Counted from the stretch's first letter, positions 20,611 through 61,550 are shown. The stretch is DNA of 64,000 bases from Armatimonadota bacterium (GCA_037445735.1 JBBIJY010000002.1:123133-187132), one strand, 5' to 3'. Numbers and translations are program-made. The notes: a model not told the origin generated them from the letters alone.

Positions 20611-23105
20611 AAATCCCGGAGCTATCGGTTGTGGTGCTGGTGGGGGCGTCGGCGTCGGGCAAAAGCACCTTCGCCCGCCGATGGTTCGCACCGACCGAAA
20701 TCCTCTCTTCGGACGCCTGCCGCGCGATGGTCGCTGACAACGAGAATGACCAGAGCGCGACACCGCTGGCGTTCGAGATATTGCACGCCATCCTCGCCAG
20801 GCGGCTGGAGTTCGGCAAGCTCGCCGTGATCGACGCCACCAACCTTTATCGCGAGGATCGCCAGCCGTACATCGAGCTGGCGCGTCGGTATCATGCCATC
20901 CCTGTCGCGATTGTGCTGGCGCTGCCCGAATCGGTCTGCCTCCAGCGCAATCGCGAGCGCACGGATCGACAGCTGCGCGAGGCGGTCATTCGCGCGCATG
21001 GGCGAGCGGTGCGCCAGTCGCTGCGCCAGCTGGAGCGGGAGGGCTTCCGCTATGTGTATATCCTGCGCACGCCGGAAGAGGTGGACGCCGCCGAGATCGT
21101 GCGCGTGCCTCTGCGCCCCAACCGCCATCGCGACGACGCCGGTCCGTTCGACATCATCGGCGATGTTCACGGCTGCTACGACGAGCTGGTTCGCCTTCTG
21201 CAAACGCTCGGCTGGCGAACGGAGGGCGACTGCCCCATTCATCCCGACGGGCGCAAAGCAATATTTGTGGGCGACCTGGTCGATCGCGGTCCGAACTCGG
21301 TGGGCGTGCTGCAGCTGGTGATGCGCATGGTGGAGGCGGGTGTCGCCTACGCCATCCCGGGCAACCACGACAACAAGCTCCTGCGCTACCTGTGGGGGCG
21401 CAAGGTGCAGGTCTCGCACGGGCTGGAGCGCACGCTCGCCGAGCTGGAGCATCAGCCCGAACCGTTTCGCGACGCCGTGCGCCAGTTTCTGGAGAACCTG
21501 CCGAGCCATCTCGTGCTGGACAGCGAACGGCTGGTGGTCACGCACGCGGGCATCAAGCCCGAATATATCGGTCGCTCCTCGCCCGCCATCCGCGACTACT
21601 GCCTGTACGGCGAGACCACAGGCGAGAGCGACGAGTTCGGGCTGCCGATACGGGTCAACTGGGCGGCGGACTATCGCGGCAGCGCGCTGGTGGTGTACGG
21701 GCACATGCCGAACCCTGAACCGCTGTGGCAGAACAACACGGTGAACATCGACACAGGTTGCGTGTTCGGCGGCAGGCTGACCGCCCTGCGCTACCCGGAA
21801 CGGGAGACGGTCAGCATCCCCGCAGCGCAGGTCTACTATCAGCCGTTGCGCCCGACGGCTGATCGGGGCGCGGTCGCACGCATGCCCATCCTGCGCATCG
21901 AGGACGCGCTCGGCAAGCAATATATCGCCACGCGCCTGCACGGCACCATCCTGTTGCGAGCGGAGCAGACCGCGCCCGCCCTGGAGACGCTCAGCCGATT
22001 CGGAGTCGACCCGCGCTGGGTGGTCTACCTGCCGCCGACGATGGCGCCCGTCGACACCGCGAACGAACCCGACCTGCTGGAGCATCCCGATGAGGCGTTC
22101 GCCTACTATCGCCATCTGGGCGTGGCGCAGGTCGTGTGCGAGCAGAAGCACATGGGTTCGCGCGCGGTGGTGATTGTGTGCCGCGATAGCGCAACTCCAC
22201 GCCGACGCTTCGGCGTCCCGACCGAGGTGCCCGGTGTCATCTACACGCGCACAGGACGGCGATTCTTCAACAACAGCGCGTGGGAGCATGCCGTTCTCCA
22301 GCACCTGCAGGACGCCATCCAGAAGGCGGGACTCTGGGATGAACTGCGAACCGACTGGCTGATTCTGGACGCCGAGCTGATGCCCTGGTCAGCGAAGGCG
22401 CAGGAGCTGCTCAGTCAGCAGTACGCGCCGACGGCGGCCGCAGGTATTACTGCGCTGCAGCACGCGCTCGCGATAGCGCCTGACGAGCTGAAGCCCAACC
22501 TGCAGGCGCGACTGGAGTGCCTCCTGCGCTATCGCGACGCCTATCGCCACTACTGCTGGCAGGTGAACAGCCCTGACGACCTGCGCCTCGCGCCGTTCCA
22601 CCTGATGGCGAGCGAGGGACGGGTCTATGCCGACCAGCCGCACACATGGCATCTGGAGCAGATTGCCCGCCTGTGCGCCGCCGGGCAGGAACTGGGCAAA
22701 GCCATCCTTCAGCCGACCGAATGGAAGCAGGTGGACACCACCGACGCCCACAGCCAGGCAGAGGCAATCCGATGGTTTCTGGACTACACGGGGTCGGGCG
22801 GCGAGGGCATCGTGGTCAAGCCGCTGGCGTTCACCGTTCGCGCCGGGCGCGGGCTGGTTCAACCTGCGCTCAAGGTGCGCGGGCGCGAGTACCTGCGCAT
22901 CATCTACGGCGCGGAATACACCCTGCACCTCGAATCGCTGCGCGAGCGGGCGGTGGGTCGCAAGCGTGCGCTCGCCCTGCGCGAGTTCGCGCTCGGCATC
23001 GAGGCGCTGGAGCGATTCGTCCGCTATGAGCCGCTGCCGCGCGTCCATCAGTGCGTGCTGGGCATCCTGGCGCTGGAAGCCGAGCCTGTCGACCCCCGCC
23101 TGTGA
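20601..23105 (+). CDS. pnkp: Polynucleotide kinase-phosphatase (kinase + metallophosphoesterase + ligase domains)
   Basis: GASASGKST P-loop; GDVHG, GDLVDRG and GNHD; EQKHMGSRA ligase motif; GEGIVVKP; KVRGREYLRIIYG; C-terminal VDPRL. Confidence 0.95.
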   Translation: MRIEIPELSVVVLVGASASGKSTFARRWFAPTEILSSDACRAMVADNENDQSATPLAFEILHAILARRLEFGKLAVIDATNLYREDRQPYIELARRYHAIPVAIVLALPESVCLQRNRERTDRQLREAVIRAHGRAVRQSLRQLEREGFRYVYILRTPEEVDAAEIVRVPLRPNRHRDDAGPFDIIGDVHGCYDELVRLLQTLGWRTEGDCPIHPDGRKAIFVGDLVDRGPNSVGVLQLVMRMVEAGVAYAIPGNHDNKLLRYLWGRKVQVSHGLERTLAELEHQPEPFRDAVRQFLENLPSHLVLDSERLVVTHAGIKPEYIGRSSPAIRDYCLYGETTGESDEFGLPIRVNWAADYRGSALVVYGHMPNPEPLWQNNTVNIDTGCVFGGRLTALRYPERETVSIPAAQVYYQPLRPTADRGAVARMPILRIEDALGKQYIATRLHGTILLRAEQTAPALETLSRFGVDPRWVVYLPPTMAPVDTANEPDLLEHPDEAFAYYRHLGVAQVVCEQKHMGSRAVVIVCRDSATPRRRFGVPTEVPGVIYTRTGRRFFNNSAWEHAVLQHLQDAIQKAGLWDELRTDWLILDAELMPWSAKAQELLSQQYAPTAAAGITALQHALAIAPDELKPNLQARLECLLRYRDAYRHYCWQVNSPDDLRLAPFHLMASEGRVYADQPHTWHLEQIARLCAAGQELGKAILQPTEWKQVDTTDAHSQAEAIRWFLDYTGSGGEGIVVKPLAFTVRAGRGLVQPALKVRGREYLRIIYGAEYTLHLESLRERAVGRKRALALREFALGIEALERFVRYEPLPRVHQCVLGILALEAEPVDPRL

Positions 23106-49344: not shown

Positions 49345-50121
49345 TCAGCCGCCCAGCGCTTTGATCCAGTCGGTAAGGAATCGGGCAGCCAGCTCCGTCA
49401 TGCGCAGGCTGATGTCCACCAGCGCGGGCAGGCTCGCGCCCAGCGCGATGAAGCCTATCGCGATTTTGGCGGGCATGCCCACCAGCCAGATGGGCACCTG
49501 CGGCACCGCGCGCGACACCGCCGCCATCGCCGCGTCCACAATCAGCAGCACACCCCCTGCTGGTGCCGCAATCTGAATGCACAGTACCATGACGCCACTC
49601 GCCAGCTCCAGCATGCCTGCCAGTCCCCGCTGAGCCACCATCGTGAGACCGGCGCCGCCGCTCACCTCAAAACTGCGCACCAGCGCCAGCATCAGCAGGT
49701 GATGCCCATCCACCAGCGCGAACAGCACCATCGCCAGCAGATAGTGGAACTGCGCCAGTAGCGAGGTCGGGAAACTGCTGACGGGGTTCAGCAATTGCAT
49801 CAGCCCGAAGCCCATCTTCATATCGAGCAGCTCGCCTGCCATCGCCGCCGCGCCGATAATCAGGCTCACCCCATAGCCCATCACCAGCCCGATTAAGGCT
49901 TCCGACACGAGGCGCAGCAGCAGGGGTATCCAGTCGGCGGGCGGTTCACCGACGCTGGTGCGCAGCATCGGCGCCAGCCCCAGTGCCAGCACCGCCGACA
50001 GCCCGATGCGCACCGACACAGGCACGAGCCGACTGCCGAACACGGGCGCCTGCAGACTCAACGCCGACGCCCGCACAAACGCCACCAGAAACGCCCACAG
50101 CCACTGCGTATCTAACGCCAT
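49345..50121 (-). CDS. fliR: Flagellar export protein FliR
   Basis: APVFGSR.VP..VR, AGELLDMKMGFG, DGHH and SRAVPQ. Confidence 0.9.
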   Translation of the reverse strand: MALDTQWLWAFLVAFVRASALSLQAPVFGSRLVPVSVRIGLSAVLALGLAPMLRTSVGEPPADWIPLLLRLVSEALIGLVMGYGVSLIIGAAAMAGELLDMKMGFGLMQLLNPVSSFPTSLLAQFHYLLAMVLFALVDGHHLLMLALVRSFEVSGGAGLTMVAQRGLAGMLELASGVMVLCIQIAAPAGGVLLIVDAAMAAVSRAVPQVPIWLVGMPAKIAIGFIALGASLPALVDISLRMTELAARFLTDWIKALGG

Positions 50122-50129
50122 CACCTCGC

Positions 50130-50393
50130 CTATCGCGGCGGCAGGTTCGACAGCACGCGCACGGTGAAGTCCACCAGCTGCATCAGCATCCAGCCGCCCG
50201 CGAACAGAAACACCAGCCCGACCGCCAGCATCTTGGGCACAAACTGCAGCGTCATCTCCTGAATCTGCGTCACCGCCTGAAAAATGCTGACCAGCAGCCC
50301 CACAATCAGCCCTGTTAGCAGCACGGGGAGGGCAACCTGCAGCCCCACCCACATCGCCTGCCGACCCAGCTCAATCACTTCCGCCTGACTCAT
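50130..50393 (-). CDS. fliQ: Flagellar export protein FliQ
   Basis: GLLVSIFQAVTQIQEMTLQFVPK. Confidence 0.93.
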   Translation of the reverse strand: MSQAEVIELGRQAMWVGLQVALPVLLTGLIVGLLVSIFQAVTQIQEMTLQFVPKMLAVGLVFLFAGGWMLMQLVDFTVRVLSNLPPR

Positions 50394-50479
50394 CACCCTC
50401 TGATTGTCGGATAGATGCCCCACTCCTTTCAGAGGTCGCGCGGCTGTGGCATGGTACAATCTGACTGGAGGCAAGACAA

Positions 50480-50767
50480 ATGGCAAAAGCGCATCCCGCG
50501 CCTAACAAGTCAGAAGCCGCTGACCGCCTGTGCATGAGCTACGAGGAGTTCCTCGCCTGGGCGGATGAGGATACACGCGCTGAATGGGGGAATGGCGAGG
50601 TGATTGTGTTTATGCCACCGAAAGACCGACATCAGGATATCGTAACATTTCTTGTGGCGCTGCTCAGACTCTTCGCCGATTTCTTCAATCTGGGCAAGGT
50701 TCGAACGGCTCCGTTTGAGATGAAGTTTTCCCCGACAGGCTCGGCGCGGGAGCCCGACATCCTGTGA
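50480..50767 (+). pseudogene. Truncated Uma2-family endonuclease
   Basis: MSYEEFL..EW.NGEV...P...HQ..REPDIL* stops right after the PD motif; the VE(I/V)xS half is missing. Confidence 0.75.
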
Positions 50768-50813
50768 ATAGCCATCGCCGAGCCTGCCCCGCTTGCCAGC
50801 TGCAGTTATAATA

Positions 50814-52403
50814 ATGAGCGAGATGGCGCGTATACTGGTGAGCGACGCGATAGCCGAGGAGGGGCTGGCGATTCTGCGTCAGGCGGGCGAGGTAGAATAT
50901 CGCCCTGGTATCACTCGCGAGCAGCTGCTAACAATCATCGGCGACTACGACGCGCTGATGGTGCGCTCGCAGACGCAGGTGGACGCCGCGCTGATTGAGG
51001 CGGGCACGCGCCTCAAGGTGATTGGCAGGGCAGGCGTCGGCGTGGACAACATCGAGGTGGACGCCGCCACCCGACGCGGTATCGTGGTGGTGAACTCGCC
51101 CGAAGGCAACACGATTGCAGCGGCGGAGCTGACCTTCGCGCTGCTGCTCGCGCTCGCCCGCAAAGTGCCGCAAGCCGACCGCTCCATCCGTGCAGGCGAA
51201 TGGAAGCGCAACGCCTTCATCGGAACCGAACTCTACAAAAAGACGCTCGGCATCATCGGCATCGGCAAGATTGGCAGGGAGGTCGCCCGTCGGGCCCGCG
51301 CGTTCGGCATGCAGGTGCTGGCGTACGACCCCTTCGTGCCGCCCGCCTACATCCAGCAACTGAGCGCGGAGCCAGTTAGCCTGGATGAACTGCTCCAGCG
51401 CAGCGATTTTATCAGCCTGCACGCGCCGCTCACGCCCGAAACTCACCACCTGCTCAATCGCGAACGGCTGGCAAAGACCCGACCTGGCGTGCGGATCATC
51501 AACTGCGCACGGGGCGAGCTGATCGATCTGGACGCGCTGGCGGAGCTGATCGATTCGGGGCATATCGCGGGCGCGGCGCTCGATGTGTTCCCGCAGGAAC
51601 CGCCGCCAGGCGACCTGCGCGTGCTGCACCAGCCCCAGAATGTGCTGACGCCCCATTTAGGTGCGTCCACCGAAGAGGCACAGGTCAAGGTCGCCCTCGA
51701 TGTGGCGGAGCAGATTGTGGCGGTGCTGACAGGTGGCGTGCCGCGCAGCCCGGTGAACCTGCCGCCGATCCCTGCTGAACAGCGCGAGCGTGTTCAGCCC
51801 TACCTGCAGCTCGCCGAGCGCATGGGACGCCTGCACGCCCAGCTGCTGAACGCGCCTGTCGAGCAACTGCAGGTGCGATTCGCAGGCGACTGGGAGGGCA
51901 TCCCGCTCGATATGATTGCCCGCGCCGCCCTGGTCGGACTGTTCAGCCACACGACCGATGCGCCGGTGAACCTCGTGAACGCGCCCCTGATCGCCCAGCA
52001 GCGCGGGCTGAAACTGGAATGGAGCCACCGCGCCGAATCGGAACTCTACCCCGACACGCTCACCACTATCGCCACCACCGCGCAGGGCGAACAGCGCCTC
52101 ACCGGCACCGTGTTCGGACGCCACGACCTGCGCATCACCCACCTGGATGACCTGTTCGTCGACATCAAACCCGAAGGGATCCTGCTGGTGACGGAGCATC
52201 ACGACCGTCCGGGCATCATCGGGCGTGTGGGCACGCTGTTAGGCAGCCATCAGATTAACATCGCGGGCATGCATGTGGGGCGCGAGCGCATCGGCGGACG
52301 CGCCGTCATGATGCTGCAGGTGGATGACCCCATTCCACCCGCTGTGCTGACCCAGATTCGGCAGTTAGAGGGCGTCGAGAGCGCGCGCGTGGTGCAGTTC
52401 TAA
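50814..52403 (+). CDS. serA: D-3-phosphoglycerate dehydrogenase (with ASB/ACT domains)
   Basis: GRAGVGVDNI, GIIGIGKIG, NCARG, TPHLGASTEEAQ and DRPGIIG ACT domain. Confidence 0.96.
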   Translation: MSEMARILVSDAIAEEGLAILRQAGEVEYRPGITREQLLTIIGDYDALMVRSQTQVDAALIEAGTRLKVIGRAGVGVDNIEVDAATRRGIVVVNSPEGNTIAAAELTFALLLALARKVPQADRSIRAGEWKRNAFIGTELYKKTLGIIGIGKIGREVARRARAFGMQVLAYDPFVPPAYIQQLSAEPVSLDELLQRSDFISLHAPLTPETHHLLNRERLAKTRPGVRIINCARGELIDLDALAELIDSGHIAGAALDVFPQEPPPGDLRVLHQPQNVLTPHLGASTEEAQVKVALDVAEQIVAVLTGGVPRSPVNLPPIPAEQRERVQPYLQLAERMGRLHAQLLNAPVEQLQVRFAGDWEGIPLDMIARAALVGLFSHTTDAPVNLVNAPLIAQQRGLKLEWSHRAESELYPDTLTTIATTAQGEQRLTGTVFGRHDLRITHLDDLFVDIKPEGILLVTEHHDRPGIIGRVGTLLGSHQINIAGMHVGRERIGGRAVMMLQVDDPIPPAVLTQIRQLEGVESARVVQF

Positions 52404-55924: not shown

Positions 55925-56737
55925 TTATATCACAACCTTAATATCAGAAGGGTTCAAGCCAGCTTGCCTGGCAATATCAATGCTGTTCTGAATTATCTGC
56001 AATGCACGGCCATGTGTCTCGATGTACCAGATGTTATCCAGTTTGGCGGGCTTTTGGAAACCACTGGCACTATTTGCAATCTTCGGCGATTTTAAAGGAA
56101 GCCGCCCGCTCTGCTGGAGTAGTGGAAGCGCGTATTTAGCGACAACAACCAGAATCTTATACCAGTGCTTGATTGGATAAGTTGTACCATCGGGCATCTT
56201 TATAGACGAAGGCGGCGGAGCGCCCGGATGCCAATACCCGCTCAGCTGATCTAAGGATATTTCTCCTGAATCAGTCCGGCCAATATCGCGCCACAATAAA
56301 ATCAGCTCACGAACTATGCGAAACAGAGCGTCGGTCTTGACTTGCACCCTTGCAACGAGTTTATCGGGCAGCGGCACAGGCTTATGCGACTCGTATATCT
56401 CCCAGATGTTGCCATCTGTGCAGACAAAGTAGTGTGCTCCTAACTGAACCGCACCGTTGACGCCCTGATTCACAGCAGGCTGCAGGTTAGCATTCAGCGC
56501 CTTGGTCTCCACCACAATGTAGGGCTTTCCATCCTTCAAAAGAGCGTAGTCAAAGCGGTTTCCACCAGTGGAAAACTCTGGAATCACTTGCTGGGGGTCT
56601 TCCGTGTCCCAACCCAGCACGCGCAAAACGGGATCTACGAGAGCATATCGCGTCAACCACTCGTTGTTTACCAGGTTGGCTGAGTGATTTCGAATGCGTC
56701 CTCGAACCCGATCAATCACCTCTAAAAATGCCTGCAT
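55925..56737 (-). CDS. HsdR-N-like restriction endonuclease domain protein
   Basis: NE..TR..LVDPVL..LGW, PEF, DYAL and IVVETK PD-(D/E)XK motifs; visibly lower GC than neighbours; own GGGTATAAT and GGAGG. Confidence 0.7.
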   Translation of the reverse strand: MQAFLEVIDRVRGRIRNHSANLVNNEWLTRYALVDPVLRVLGWDTEDPQQVIPEFSTGGNRFDYALLKDGKPYIVVETKALNANLQPAVNQGVNGAVQLGAHYFVCTDGNIWEIYESHKPVPLPDKLVARVQVKTDALFRIVRELILLWRDIGRTDSGEISLDQLSGYWHPGAPPPSSIKMPDGTTYPIKHWYKILVVVAKYALPLLQQSGRLPLKSPKIANSASGFQKPAKLDNIWYIETHGRALQIIQNSIDIARQAGLNPSDIKVVI

Positions 56738-56797
56738 GTTGATTTCGCCTCCGACTAATCTCAATTATACCCGACTCTGTCGCAAGGGAGGAGTGTC

Positions 56798-56977
56798 TTG
56801 CGCTCCCTTCGAGAGGCGCGCAACGCGATTGTGCATGGCACGCGGCGTTCGGAGCGCCATCTGGTAAAATCGGCACTGGAGGATGATGAGGGAATGCAGA
56901 ACCTCTACAAGCAGGCGCGCGACATCTATGAACGGCTCAGGGACATTTACCAGCGACAGCAGGAGGCAATCCGATGA
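56798..56977 (+). pseudogene. 59-codon HEPN-motif fragment or mini-ORF
   Basis: Translates (L/M)RSLREARNAIVHG..., an RN..xH motif; its TGA overlaps the csx15 ATG (ATGA). Confidence 0.55.
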
Positions 56978-57354
56978 TTCTGATTAACTTTGCGCACCCG
57001 ATAACGGAGCTGCAACGCACCCAGATCGAGACACTCACAGGCAAACAGATAGAAAGGATTATCGATGTGCCTGTCCAGCTGGACAATATGCAGCCCTTCG
57101 AACCGCAGGTGCTGAGCCTGCTGGACAGGGTGGGACTGAGTTCGCAAGAGTGGCAAACTTTGCCAATCCTGATCAATCTCCCCAGCCTGAATGTGATTGC
57201 CGCGATTCTGCTGGCGGAGCTGCATGGGCGCACGGGGCACTTTCCTGCGGTTGTGCGCCTGCGTCCCATGCCAGATAGCACCCCACCGCAATTCGAGGTC
57301 GCAGAGATTATTAATCTGCAGGCGATTCGCGACAGTGCCCGTGCACGGCGGTAA
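56974..57354 (+). CDS. csx15: CRISPR-associated Csx15-like protein
   Basis: ILINFAHPIT..Q..QI, WQ..PILINLP, LAELHGR.GHFP..VRLR and FEVAEIINLQ.IR..AR. Confidence 0.75.
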   Translation: MILINFAHPITELQRTQIETLTGKQIERIIDVPVQLDNMQPFEPQVLSLLDRVGLSSQEWQTLPILINLPSLNVIAAILLAELHGRTGHFPAVVRLRPMPDSTPPQFEVAEIINLQAIRDSARARR

Positions 57355-57416
57355 TCGCATCCTTGCACGGGTAGTCAGAGGGCAATCGGAGCGTTGACCG
57401 GGTGCTTCTTACTTCT

Positions 57417-57475: not shown

Positions 57476-59404
57476 TCAGCGGTTGAGCAGGGTGCCCACA
57501 TAGCGCAGCGCTTCGTTCGCGCAGATGGGGCAGTAGCCACCCTGCGAGACCATGCGGTCGACCACCTCGTTGATTTTACGCAGCTGGTCGGGGTCGGGCG
57601 TGCGGGCAGAGGTGGTGATTTTGACCACATCTTTGAGGTCGGCAAACAGTTTGCGCTCGATGGCTTCGCGCAGGCGTTCGTCGCTGCCGATCTCGAAGCG
57701 CAGCCCGCGCCGTGCCAGCGACGCCACAGAGCGCATGATGCCCTCACGGAACTCCCGCTTGGCGTTCTCGGACACTCCGATCTGCTCCTCGATGCTGCGC
57801 ATCAGCTTCTCGTCGGGGTCCATCTCCTCGCCCGTGATGGGGTCGCGCACTTTGGTCTTGTTGCAGTAGGCGTCCACATTATCGAGGTAGTTCTCCAGCA
57901 GGGTGTGCGCGGCTTCCTCATAGCTGTAGACGAAGAAGCGCTGCACCTCCTTTTTGATCTGCTCGTCGTATTCCTTGCGCACATCGTCCAGGAAGGTAAG
58001 CAGCTTCTTGCGCTCTTCCTCGTTGCTGGTGTACTCGGTCAATCCGTCGCGGATGGAGCGCAGGATATCGATGGGCGTGATGCAGGGGCGCCCTTTGACC
58101 ATCGCGGCGGAGAGGCGATTGATGATGAATCGGGGCGAGACGCCCGTCATGCCCTCATCGGGGTACTCCTCGCGCAGCTCCTTCACATGGCGCTGGTCCC
58201 AATCGCCGACCTGGCGCTCGCCGTCGTAGAGTTTCATCTTGGTCATCAGTGACAGTCCGCTCTTTTTGGGCGGCTTCAGACGGCTCAACACCGCGAACAT
58301 CGCCGCCACACGCAACGAATGCGGCGCGATATGCACCTTCGACAGGTCCTGGGTCTCGTCGCTGAACTGGGACTGCCGGATGAGTTTCTCGTAGATACGA
58401 ACCTCCTGGGAGACCTGCAGGTTATAGGGCACTTTGACCACGAACATGCGGTCGATCATTGCCTCGTTCTCTTTGTTGGAGAAGTAGGCGTTGTATTCAT
58501 ACTCGTTGGTGTGCGCGACGACGACCACATCGGTGTAGATCATGGCGAACCGCCCGATTTTGATCATCTGCTCGCCGGCGACGGTGTTGAGTTCGTACAG
58601 GAACCGTTTGTCCGCCTTGAGCATTTCGATGAACTCCATGATGCCGCGGTTCGCCTTGTTCAGTTCGCCATCGAAGTTATAGACGCGCGGGTCCGATTCG
58701 ACGCCGATCTGGGTGAGCAGGCTCAGGTTCACGCTGCCGGTGAGTTCCGATACATCCTGCGACTTGGGGTCGGAGGGCTTGAAGGTGCCGATGCCAACGC
58801 GCTCGCGCTCGGAGAATCGGATGCGCACGACGGGCACATCCTGAATGTTCTCGCCCCATTCGTGTTTGAGTTTCCACTGGCACACGGGGCAGAGGTCGCC
58901 TTCGATATGCACGCCGAACTGGCGCTTGAAGTCGGCACGCAGCTCTTCGGGCACGAGGTGGAGCGGCTCCTCATGCATGGGGCAGTCCTTGATGGCGTAC
59001 ACGGCGCCCTCGTCGGTGCGCGAATAGCGTTCCAGCCCGCGCTTGAGCATCGTCACCAGCGTCGATTTGCCGCCGCCGACGGGACCCACCAGCAGCAGGA
59101 TGCGCTTGCGCACATCGAGTCGGCGTGCGGCGGGCGCGAAATACTCCTCCACCAGTTGCTGGAGTGTGCGGTCGAGCCCGAACAGCTCGCTGGTGAAGAA
59201 TTTGTACTCTTTGGGTTGTCCTTCACCACGCTCTTCGACGCCAGCGCTGATAATCATGTCGTAGATACGCGCGTGCGCCAGATTGGCGACTTTCGGGTTG
59301 CGCTGGACAATCTCCAGATAGTCCCGAAAAGTGCCTTCCCAGCTGATCTGTTTTTCCAGCCGTCGCTGTTCCTCGATCTGGCGCAGGAAGTCCGCTGCGC
59401 TCAT
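57476..59404 (-). CDS. prkA: PrkA/YeaG-family AAA+ serine kinase
   Basis: LLVGPVGGGKS, CPMHEEPL, SQDVSELTG, GELNKANRG..EFIEMLK, HTNE and GVSPR. Confidence 0.93.
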   Translation of the reverse strand: MSAADFLRQIEEQRRLEKQISWEGTFRDYLEIVQRNPKVANLAHARIYDMIISAGVEERGEGQPKEYKFFTSELFGLDRTLQQLVEEYFAPAARRLDVRKRILLLVGPVGGGKSTLVTMLKRGLERYSRTDEGAVYAIKDCPMHEEPLHLVPEELRADFKRQFGVHIEGDLCPVCQWKLKHEWGENIQDVPVVRIRFSERERVGIGTFKPSDPKSQDVSELTGSVNLSLLTQIGVESDPRVYNFDGELNKANRGIMEFIEMLKADKRFLYELNTVAGEQMIKIGRFAMIYTDVVVVAHTNEYEYNAYFSNKENEAMIDRMFVVKVPYNLQVSQEVRIYEKLIRQSQFSDETQDLSKVHIAPHSLRVAAMFAVLSRLKPPKKSGLSLMTKMKLYDGERQVGDWDQRHVKELREEYPDEGMTGVSPRFIINRLSAAMVKGRPCITPIDILRSIRDGLTEYTSNEEERKKLLTFLDDVRKEYDEQIKKEVQRFFVYSYEEAAHTLLENYLDNVDAYCNKTKVRDPITGEEMDPDEKLMRSIEEQIGVSENAKREFREGIMRSVASLARRGLRFEIGSDERLREAIERKLFADLKDVVKITTSARTPDPDQLRKINEVVDRMVSQGGYCPICANEALRYVGTLLNR

Positions 59405-59422
59405 TGTTCATAACCCCCTTGT

Positions 59423-59766
59423 GTGTGGCGTCGGGTGAAACAGGGTTCACCGTCCACCACTCGTTCACGACGATCAGGCAGGATGGGTCCTTGAAGCCAT
59501 CTCCCGATGGCAGTTGCCTCTGCCTGGTTCCCCATTCCAGAAGGGCGGTGCGTGCCAGCCCTGTCAACAGAACCCTCTCCCATTATCGGTTCGACGGAAC
59601 TGCCTTTGGATGGGGTTCCAGTGCGATTCCGTGGGAAATATTCCACAGGCACGCCCGAAACTGCAACGCTGTTCGGAGCGCCTGTGCACTGCCAGTGGAG
59701 ACCGCTTCGTTGCCACACCCGATTGTCAATGTACCCGAAGGCATCTGCCGCTGTTTCGATGCCTTC
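59423..59766 (-). ncRNA. Candidate structured leader/ncRNA upstream of prkA (family not recognised)
   Basis: Nested stems closed by GTGTGGC/GCCACAC, a GGGA tetraloop on the minus strand, and TATAAT at 59790-59785. Confidence 0.5.
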
Positions 59767-59891
59767 TCACCTGCCTGCTGCTATATTATACTACGGATTC
59801 ACCGCCAATCGGGTTTCGGAAGGGCGTCTCGTCCATCAAGACGCCTGCCGCTGATTAAAGTTCGTCGGCGCGTCGGGCGATTCCTGCCGTT

Positions 59892-61550
59892 TCAGTGGCG
59901 GCGGCGCAGGATGGAGATAAGCAGCCACACGCCGAGCAGGGTCGCCCCCAGAAAGCCGAGGAAGGTGAGCGCGGGCGCGAACGGGATTTCGCGGGTGGCG
60001 GGCAACAGCAGCGCCAGCCCCACAATAAACGCCGCCACCAGAATACTGAGCGACAGGCGCGTGATCATCGCGTCGAGCCGATCGAGCGTTTCGGGCGACG
60101 CGCCAATCTGCGCTTCCACCGGCACCTTGCCCCGCTCCACACCCTGCAACCACTGCATCACCAGCACGGGCAACTCGCGCATCAGGTAGCGCCAGGTATC
60201 CACCTGCTCCAGCAGGTCGCGCGTGGACAGGTGCGGACGCCACACCTGCTTCGCCAGCTGCCGCACGAACGGCTCCGAGACCGCAAACAGGTCATAATCG
60301 GGGTCCAGCTGGCGCCCGATGCCCTCCAGCATCGCCAGCGTCTTGCCCACCAGCCACAGGTTGGTCGGCAACCGCACATGGTGCTGGCGCATCAGCTCGG
60401 TCAGATCGCTCCAGAACTCGGCGAAGGAGCTTTCCTTGAGCGTGCGCCCGCGATATTTGCCGATGAGCCGTTCAGTGGCGCGGATCAGGCGCGGGCGATC
60501 GGTGCGCGAGGAGAGCGCGCCCATCCGCGCAAACACATTCAATATCGAGTGGGTATCCTGCCGAATCACCGCCACATAGAGGCGGGTGAGATTGATGCGG
60601 TCGTCCTCGCTGAGCGTGCCCACCATACCGAAATCCAGCACGCCGATGCGCCCGTCCGCCTCCACCAGATAGTTGCCCGGGTGGGGGTCTGCATGGAAGA
60701 AGCCGTCTTCCAGCACCTCTTTGATGATGAGGCGCGAGGCGTCGAGCGCGATCTGGCGCGTGTCGTGCCCCGCCGCGCGCAACGCCTCCACCTCGTCCAC
60801 CTTGATGCCGTGAACCCGCTCCATCACCAGCATGCGTGGCGTGGTGTAATCCCAGTAGATGCGCGGGATATGCACCTTCGGCTCGTCGGCGAAGTTCTGG
60901 CGGAACTGCTCGGCGTTGCGCCCCTCCCGCCGAAAATCGAGCTCGTTCAGCAGCATAAAAGCGATATCTTCAGCGACCGCTTCCGCGTCATACAGCTCGC
61001 CCATCGGCGTGCGCTGCGCCAGCGCTGCCAGATCGTGCAGAATCTCCAGGTCGGTCTCCACGATGTCACGGATGCCGGGGCGCTGCACCTTGATGGCGAC
61101 CGCCGTGCCGTCGGGCAGTGTCGCTGCATGCACCTGCGAGAGCGAGGCGGAGCCGATGGGGTTCGGGTCCAGGTTCTGGAACACCGCTTCGGGTGGACAC
61201 CCCAGCTCCTGCTCCATCACGGCGCGAATCTCGGACCATGGCGTGGGTGGCACACTGTCCTGCAGCTTGCGCAACTCCTCAATAAACGGCTCCGGCAGCA
61301 GATCGGAGCGCGTGGAGAGCATCTGCCCCAGCTTGACGAAGGTGGGACCCAGCTCTTCGATGGCGAGGCGCAGATGCTCGGCAGGGGAGTGGAGCGGCTC
61401 TATGTCGGGCTGGAGTTCGGCGCGAGGGAGCGCGAGCCGCCGATGCACGCTCAAATACTCCAGCGCGGAGCCGAACCCGTGTCGCGCCAGCACACCCACC
61501 ACCTGACGGTAGCGTTGCAGGCTCCGCACACGCCGCGCTAAGAGACGCAT
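59892..61550 (-). CDS. AarF/ABC1/UbiB-family kinase
   Basis: LGPTFVKLGQ.LSTR.DL, SASLSQVH.A, VAIKVQRP, FFHADPHPGN and LDFGMVG. Confidence 0.92.
   Translation of the reverse strand: MRLLARRVRSLQRYRQVVGVLARHGFGSALEYLSVHRRLALPRAELQPDIEPLHSPAEHLRLAIEELGPTFVKLGQMLSTRSDLLPEPFIEELRKLQDSVPPTPWSEIRAVMEQELGCPPEAVFQNLDPNPIGSASLSQVHAATLPDGTAVAIKVQRPGIRDIVETDLEILHDLAALAQRTPMGELYDAEAVAEDIAFMLLNELDFRREGRNAEQFRQNFADEPKVHIPRIYWDYTTPRMLVMERVHGIKVDEVEALRAAGHDTRQIALDASRLIIKEVLEDGFFHADPHPGNYLVEADGRIGVLDFGMVGTLSEDDRINLTRLYVAVIRQDTHSILNVFARMGALSSRTDRPRLIRATERLIGKYRGRTLKESSFAEFWSDLTELMRQHHVRLPTNLWLVGKTLAMLEGIGRQLDPDYDLFAVSEPFVRQLAKQVWRPHLSTRDLLEQVDTWRYLMRELPVLVMQWLQGVERGKVPVEAQIGASPETLDRLDAMITRLSLSILVAAFIVGLALLLPATREIPFAPALTFLGFLGATLLGVWLLISILRRRH

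Follow-up and report, generated by a model that had tools for sequence, protein, structure and literature searches.

What occupies the 487 non-coding bases upstream of prkA in this genome, and at which level does it act? We analysed a window of 64,000 nucleotides, the whole stretch GCA_037445735.1 JBBIJY010000002.1:123133-187132 of an Armatimonadota bacterium, in which prkA lies on the minus strand (57476-59404). Its 642-aa product carries the Pfam domains AAA_PrkA and PrkA (E 2e-123 and 4e-89), and the gene call of a preliminary description of this DNA is confirmed. Proteins 92-99% identical to it come from Fimbriimonadales/Armatimonadota records, mostly hot-spring MAGs, which places the window in that lineage. 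The next gene upstream, at 59892-61550, encodes an ABC1-type kinase; the preliminary description took most of the gap between the two genes for a highly structured non-coding leader and a candidate for a new RNA motif.

To our knowledge, gene regulation in Armatimonadota, an uncultured thermophilic phylum, is essentially unstudied. In other bacteria, few genes are induced by starvation as strongly as prkA/yeaG, whose induction depends on (p)ppGpp, and in Rhizobium etli it is negatively autoregulated, according to PMC3188799. PMC9512850 and PMC13684143 link PrkA to ATP-dependent proteolysis and to turnover of the proteome in starvation.

The answer that we favour, with somewhat better than even confidence, is a conserved prkA leader that stands behind an ECF-type promoter (P1), is folded by a 5'/3' clamp, contains an internal promoter-like site (P2) and is the seat of clamp-based post-transcriptional control. 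This leader and its relatives form a structured mRNA-leader family that is new, the mechanism of which we infer.

Table 1. Features of the prkA upstream region, in window coordinates.
Feature	Position	Strand	Basis and conservation
prkA 5' leader RNA, predicted	59405..59779	-	~375 nt; putative start taken from P1; fold z and leader HMM
P1 -35-like element, GAAAC	59813..59817	-	G[GA]AAC, then exactly 17 nt, then CGTA in 27/27 distinct leaders
P1 -10 region, CGTAGTATAAT	59785..59795	-	invariant CGTA + (N0-3)TATAAT, 27/27 leaders
Outer long-range helix, 5' strand, CAGGCAGG	59770..59777	-	pairs with 59475-59482 in MFE and centroid; helix 1 of alignment A4, 96.7% paired
5'-proximal 9-bp hairpin	59737..59766	-	9/9 pairs in MFE; A4 helix 2
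Conserved block 1, UUGACAAUCGG	59719..59729	-	kept in all four groups; unpaired in most single-sequence folds
Inner long-range helix P4, 5' strand, AAGCGGUCUCC	59697..59707	-	pairs with 59494-59505 in MFE; A4 helix 6, 95.9% paired
Hairpin P5 (CACAGGC/GCCTGTG)	59644..59686	-	7/7 pairs in MFE
P2 -35-like element, GGAAC	59615..59619	-	G[GA]AAC 17 or 18 nt before nGTC, 27/27 leaders
P2 -10-like element, CGTCGAACCGATAAT	59582..59596	-	most conserved block; GTC[GTA]AACC[GA]ATAAT, 27/27 leaders
Inner long-range helix P4, 3' strand, GGGAGAUGGCUU	59494..59505	-	MFE, A4
Outer long-range helix, 3' strand, CCUGCCUG	59475..59482	-	MFE, centroid, A4
Lineage-specific stem-loop just 5' of the SD	59425..59460	-	holds GCCACAC and GGTGAA/TTCACC; local in MFE and centroid
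Shine-Dalgarno (SD), AAGGGGGU	59413..59420	-	invariant in all 27 leaders and L018

Distribution and coding capacity of the leader

We collected 80 prkA loci and ran an HMM of the upstream region against all of them. It matched over its full length in 20 of the 80 and weakly, over a part, in locus L018; metagenome loci with a full-length match number at least five (5 of 80 among the matches listed, in a scan keyed on the RBS and start codon). Once two duplicates were dropped, 27 distinct leaders were left, 235-384 nt long, with lengths that vary between genera. By sequence they fall into four groups, each more or less equivalent to a genus: the window's genus with five leaders, the L008 group with four, the L011 group with two and genus g3 with 16. 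BLAST with the interval itself gives matches confined to the genus (4 of 61 genomes, including the window's own), and in its own genome the leader is present in a single copy. The ABC1 gene stands upstream of prkA in only one of the 80 relatives' loci; the conservation of the leader therefore travels with prkA. Judged from sequence, this leader family precedes prkA in one family of Armatimonadota, in hot-spring lineages.

The expectation that the interval would match no known RNA family was borne out by a search of Rfam 15. Between 58500 and 60800 of the window its best matches were miRNA and snoRNA noise that scored 18-23 bits, where the gathering thresholds are 45-82, and across the loci of six relatives it placed nothing inside the leaders. 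In the literature on prkA/yeaG leaders, Armatimonadetes structured RNAs and prkA promoters, mostly at the level of abstracts, we found no prkA leader RNA.

Among the 27 leaders, the stem-loop just 5' of the SD exists only in the window and in its nearest relative, L030. In two loci of the window's genus, L143 and L004, an extra GC-rich hairpin of ~45 nt is inserted in the middle of block 1.

Might the interval code for protein, either as a plus-strand gene or as a leader peptide read from a minus-strand uORF? Three overlapping mechanical ORFs do cross it, at 59404-60189 (+), 59401-59718 (-) and 59507-59854 (+), and by eye the g3 leaders show an in-frame AUG 75 nt upstream of the prkA start, with an open frame between the two. 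None of the three ORFs, however, has a Pfam match at E <= 1, and no upstream ORF is conserved, which agrees with the earlier view of the interval as non-coding. By eye again, indels among the relatives break the triplet register, the groups do not read the invariant block in a common frame, and in one g3 member the AUGGAA uORF is closed by a stop at its third codon. A coding role is scarcely credible to us. The upstream in-frame AUG occurs in 15 of the 16 g3 leaders (e.g. L019:1425-1503) and may reflect a 25-residue N-terminal extension or chance; its segment is also the 3' strand of the clamp. A leader-peptide attenuator was rejected as well: no frame is conserved between groups (by eye) and there is no terminator.

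Promoter-like sites and a candidate stress regulon

The TATAAT noticed earlier at 59790-59785 on the minus strand is present, and it is part of a predicted promoter, P1, that is invariant in 27 of 27 relatives and at which the leader would begin. AAC at -35 and CGT at -10 are characteristic of ECF promoters. With GGAAC or GAAAC at -35, a fixed spacer and CGT at -10, P1 is, by its sequence, an ECF-sigma-type stress promoter. Transcription would start just 3' of it. A scan with the sigma-70 consensus called neither P1 nor P2.

Across the genome assembly (2.78 Mb in 59 contigs), the full P1 motif has one occurrence, and its core, G[GA]AAC-N17-CGTA, has 20 matches against 11 for the backward control. 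Genes that Pfam assigns to Hsp70 (dnaK), Lon, Hsp20, an ECF sigma factor and two ArsR-type regulators have a P1-type core 17-84 nt ahead of their start codons. These regulon motif sites (loci L213-L218) map to contigs C1 (~136.9 kb), C3 (~49.5 and ~79.1 kb), C7 (~43.8 kb), C21 and C40. The ECF sigma ORF, at about 78.5-79.1 kb of C3, has a P1-type motif 23 nt before it, and its gene carries a tandem motif pair, GGAAC-N17-CGTCTAA and GGAAC-N17-CGTATAA. The P1 motif is found, then, before an ECF sigma gene, as in autoregulation, and before other members of a candidate regulon.

The usual operon partners of prkA are yeaH and spoVR. Here the three genes are split over three contigs, with yeaH at C7:~49943-51135 and spoVR at C12:~21503-22766 (L236-L238). 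Both yeaH (DUF444) and spoVR have a related motif, GRAAC-N18/19-GTA, that begins 47-49 nt upstream of the start codon, and the two genes appear to be co-regulated with prkA. Given P1-type motifs before stress genes and related ones before yeaH and spoVR, prkA would therefore belong to a stress-type regulon. As a hypothesis, we propose dnaK, lon, hsp20, the ECF sigma gene, prkA, yeaH and spoVR as its candidate members; prkA alone among them has a long leader (~375 nt), the others having short ones. Downstream of prkA, the window (55925-57368, minus strand) holds, in place of yeaH, a 143-aa ORF with no Pfam match and a 279-aa ORF that weakly matches HSDR_N (type I restriction R, N-terminal).

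The two most invariant sequences in the centre of the leader are GGAAC at 59619-59615 and GTCGAACCGATAAT at 59595-59582. Their architecture is that of P1, with a spacer that is rigid in length (17 or 18 nt; 18 in the window) and variable in sequence. The -10-like block is unique in the genome and resembles the GGAAC-N17-CGTCTAA before the ECF sigma gene. Two features speak against a plain promoter: the base preceding GTC is C in 19 of the 27 leaders and A, T or G in eight, and the ten bases following GTC are kept more strictly than the function of a -10 element would demand. Altogether, the central conserved blocks are probably a second promoter rather than an RNA motif, and P2 probably serves, in a judgement that leans only slightly beyond even, as a proximal promoter giving a shorter transcript.

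In the class-level relative L018 (1046-1503), with a PrkA 86% identical, the distal motif stands 455 nt and the internal one 336 nt ahead of the ATG. The block at the internal site is GTCGAACCTATAAT, which contains a perfect TATAAT.

The same sites support an account in which conservation acts on DNA only: two tandem ECF-type promoters with regulator sites (e.g. block 1), the folding being a by-product of G+C content. The central blocks do copy the P1 architecture in all 27 leaders, down to the rigid 17/18-nt spacer of variable sequence, and a tandem motif pair also stands at the ECF sigma gene of the same genome. The central region, in addition, has no cross-group consensus structure, and each half of a leader alone folds no better than shuffles. 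We hold this account to be unlikely, though a serious contender; what it leaves unexplained emerges from the folding of the whole leader.

Folding and covariation of the leader

The description of the interval as highly structured withstood a comparison of its MFE with dinucleotide shuffles. On the minus strand, 59395-59790 reaches -162.7 kcal/mol (z -4.14), and none of 100 shuffles equals it; on the plus strand, where z is -1.83, five of 100 do. Over 17 representative leaders, z runs from -0.17 to -3.85 with a mean of -2.45, and 13 of them have z <= -1.85. In 12 of the 17, z is lower for the sense strand than for the antisense (antisense mean -1.32); the antisense is somewhat structured too, as in L030, where it has z -4.12. 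Two leaders, L010 (z -0.38) and L014 (z -0.17), fold no better than shuffles.

The particular stems drawn in the preliminary description fared less evenly. Its ten word pairs all lie where it had placed them on the plus strand and are exact reverse complements, but only four form in the MFE structure, namely GGTGAA/TTCACC, AGGGC/GCCCT, CACAGGC/GCCTGTG and the 9-bp hairpin; the other six do not. The supposed outer stems, GTGTGGC/GCCACAC and CCACT/AGTGG, have 0 of 7 and 0 of 5 pairs there. Both depend on a 3' extension of ~45 nt that only the window and the near-identical L030 possess. The nested model closed by GTGTGGC/GCCACAC fails, and comparative data favour other long-range helices.

Five leaders drawn from the four groups were folded whole and by halves. 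For the window leader, the 5' half, 3' half and whole gave z of -0.38, -0.55 and -3.85; the corresponding values were +0.75, -0.77 and -3.83 for L008, -0.08, -1.27 and -3.25 for L013, -1.94, +0.16 and -3.24 for L012, and -1.35, -0.83 and -3.49 for L054. In these predicted folds the excess stability belongs to the molecule as a whole and comes from pairing of the 5' half with the 3' half.

This bears on the question of what kind of RNA is made, which the preliminary description had left as either a cis-regulatory element or an independent ncRNA. The internal promoter-like element and the conserved hairpins of the 5' half would suit an arrangement in which the product of P1 is a separate small RNA, terminated ahead of prkA, and prkA is transcribed from P2 alone. 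No terminator-like site was found, however, on the minus strand from 59950 to 59300, and hence none within the leader, so that an independent ncRNA is unlikely; the stability signal, moreover, requires both halves on one molecule. We judge the small-RNA arrangement very improbable.

How general is the long-range pairing? Of the nine nucleotides that follow block 1, at least five find partners 3' of block 2 in 21 of the 27 MFE folds, a proportion that drops to 30% once the 3' sequence is shuffled. This helix is absent from the window's own MFE; the window's genus has five leaders, and in four of them, the window included, none of the nine nucleotides pairs long-range in the MFE. By eye, the 5' strand of the clamp is GGCGUU in g3 and GGGUG elsewhere, its partner being AACGCC in the former and CACCC or ACACC in the latter. 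When 5' and 3' parts were swapped between groups, the cognate duplex was the best in every row of the matrix (-31.9, -36.1, -26.1 and -29.9 kcal/mol), the non-cognate ones ranging from -22.5 to -27.6 kcal/mol, with a small margin for the L011 group. A swap of 14-nt against 70-nt duplexes gave no discrimination over a high G+C background. As for contiguous runs of complementarity in the helix after block 1, the shuffled baseline is ~6 bp, and the L008 group alone reaches significance (p <= 0.003); g3 is marginal (0.03-0.12 for most), and the window's genus and the L011 group are not significant.

Pairs that changed on both sides were counted in three alignments. In A4, the five sequences of the window's genus, 96 pairs (88% paired) contain 13 such changes, against 7.3+-1.9 in shuffled controls (0/500) and 3-6 in slid ones. 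Three of its pairs with changes on both sides belong to the 9-bp hairpin (helix 2), and P4 (helix 6) shows one C-G to U-A double change. For g3, the domain alignment A2 (53 pairs) has seven against 2.4 shuffled (1/500) and 0-3 slid, and the full-length alignment A5 (78 pairs) has seven against 3.7 shuffled (4/500) and 2-5 slid; the g3 hairpin homologous to P5 accounts for three pairs changed on both sides. Within-genus covariation thus appears modestly above controls, with the caveat that the sequences are related and that kinship alone can beat shuffles without any structure.

No such agreement was obtained across groups, either from the alignments or from the covariance model that we tried. 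Applied to the central 118 nt in 25 of the sequences, RNAalifold predicted 0 pairs; it gave few helices on the 27-sequence MAFFT alignment, where all-pairs covariation produced only pairings of pyrimidine runs with G runs. In the 27-sequence domain alignment A1, the 3' strands were out of register. A covariance model built on g3 (R1) either missed the other groups or reached them at E 4e-4 to 0.03; it is too specific, finding 16 of 17 g3 genomes, one of four g5 genomes and 0 of 122 genomes of other families, and under strict filters it had 0 matches in the window's own genus. The anticipated conservation and covariation in relatives are present to this extent: 27 leaders and a within-genus signal above controls, but no cross-group consensus. 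The 5'-proximal hairpin is present in every group, with differing sequence.

It is in these results that an account by DNA-level conservation falls short. It leaves unexplained why the whole leader lies 3-4 sd beyond shuffles and neither half does so, why the sense strand is favoured in 12 of 17 leaders, why double-sided pair changes exceed shuffled and slid controls, and why hairpins are kept in place despite differing sequence.

A proposed role for the clamp, and known systems

In the window's genus, the predicted unpaired probability of the SD is 0.55-0.87 in the long isoform against 0.03-0.48 in the short one, and all five leaders are more open when long. In the short isoform the C-rich 3' strands of the clamp are predicted to pair with the SD, which itself sits outside the clamp. 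Outside this genus the difference is absent or mixed.

We propose the following mechanism, in keeping with the clamp-folded leader that we favour. The transcript from P1 would be a long prkA mRNA with the ~375-nt leader, starting just 3' of P1. Its first ~100 nt, which only this transcript would contain, may pair with the ~60-100 nt before the SD to form the clamp, in helices whose sequences would differ between genera. A start at P2 would yield a shorter, clamp-less transcript, which is probably also made. The clamp would then impose on prkA a post-transcriptional control, of translation efficiency or of mRNA stability, that has no parallel in the regulon partners; in the window's genus it may sequester C-rich segments otherwise free to pair with the SD. 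We infer this role of the clamp because the leader has no terminator and no conserved upstream ORF, and because the SD is more open in the long isoform of the window's genus.

Could the leader instead be a riboswitch, its aptamer binding a metabolite of starvation or stress and thereby gating the translation of prkA? It is long, multibranched and conserved, it precedes a single gene, its invariant blocks are unpaired, and it lacks an Rfam match. Strong induction of prkA by (p)ppGpp and starvation in other bacteria, as reported in PMC3188799, would agree with such a sensor. The best-conserved 'loop' sequences are nevertheless better explained as a promoter, the groups share no aptamer-like consensus, and the length of 235-384 nt varies between genera. 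As to an expression platform, there is neither a terminator nor a consistent SD-sequestering switch; SD accessibility differs consistently in no group but the window's genus, where the contrast is one of promoter isoforms, not of alternative folds. A riboswitch seems to us distinctly improbable.

An RNA thermometer was also considered and rejected. Thermometers of the ROSE and fourU types are short hairpins that pair with the SD and melt with temperature. The SD of the window (GGGGG) has a predicted unpaired probability of 0.55, and no SD hairpin is common to the groups.

Beyond this leader family, an ECF-like motif stands 280-320 nt before the ATG in 15 of 29 other Armatimonadota prkA loci, against two of 29 for the backward control and one of 31 in other phyla. 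Nine of these 15 loci represent one lineage (L021-L027, L042 and L055), whose leaders of ~260 nt (positions ~1210-1503) are 85% conserved and have z of -1.8 to -6.1 in all nine. By HMM or CM they show no sequence homology to the window's family. In them, a predicted 14-bp helix pairs the SD region with upstream sequence; covariation in their alignment (A7), which varies too little to reveal any, does not exceed that of shuffles (3 against 3.3). Of the other leaders outside the family, four have z of -2.6 to -4.5, and L049 and L040 do not fold well. These ECF-like motifs and the folding of leaders outside the family suggest that a long folded prkA leader, preceded by a stress-type promoter, is an Armatimonadota-wide trait.

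A bolder version of this idea makes the leaders one phylum-wide prkA riboregulator of ~260-400 nt behind a stress-sigma promoter, with the window's family as one of its sequence variants. It would be an ancient, fast-diverging switch that senses a (p)ppGpp-like metabolite or PrkA feedback and gates translation of the long transcript, leaving the short form from P2 unregulated. We consider this rather improbable.

Within our preferred reading, the long leader of prkA, set beside partners that share its promoter class and have no such leader, points to an additional, prkA-specific post-transcriptional layer. The leader offers a defined RNA for testing, and the candidate regulon a usable hypothesis on how the stress response is wired.

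Two known systems invite comparison. The Bacillus subtilis sigma-W consensus is TGAAAC-N16-CGTATA, and that of alphaproteobacterial EcfG is GGAAC-N16/17-CGTT. P1 resembles the promoters of ECF (group IV) sigma factors in its -35 AAC, its rigid spacer (17 nt) and its -10 CGT, and in that its type also precedes an ECF sigma gene and stress genes. It differs in that its -10 is followed by a perfect TATAAT, and in the leader of ~375 nt behind it, against 17-84 nt for the other regulon members.

The second is the rpoS leader of E. coli, where the mRNA of a stress regulator has an extended 5' UTR and long-range pairing in it controls translation. We know of no involvement of an sRNA or of Hfq at the prkA leader. 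As in rpoS, several hundred nucleotides precede a stationary-phase or stress gene, and upstream sequence is predicted to pair with the region before the SD. In contrast to it, the prkA leader, which shares with rpoS no kinship by sequence or Rfam, leaves its SD mostly outside the long-range helix and carries a promoter-like site of its own within.
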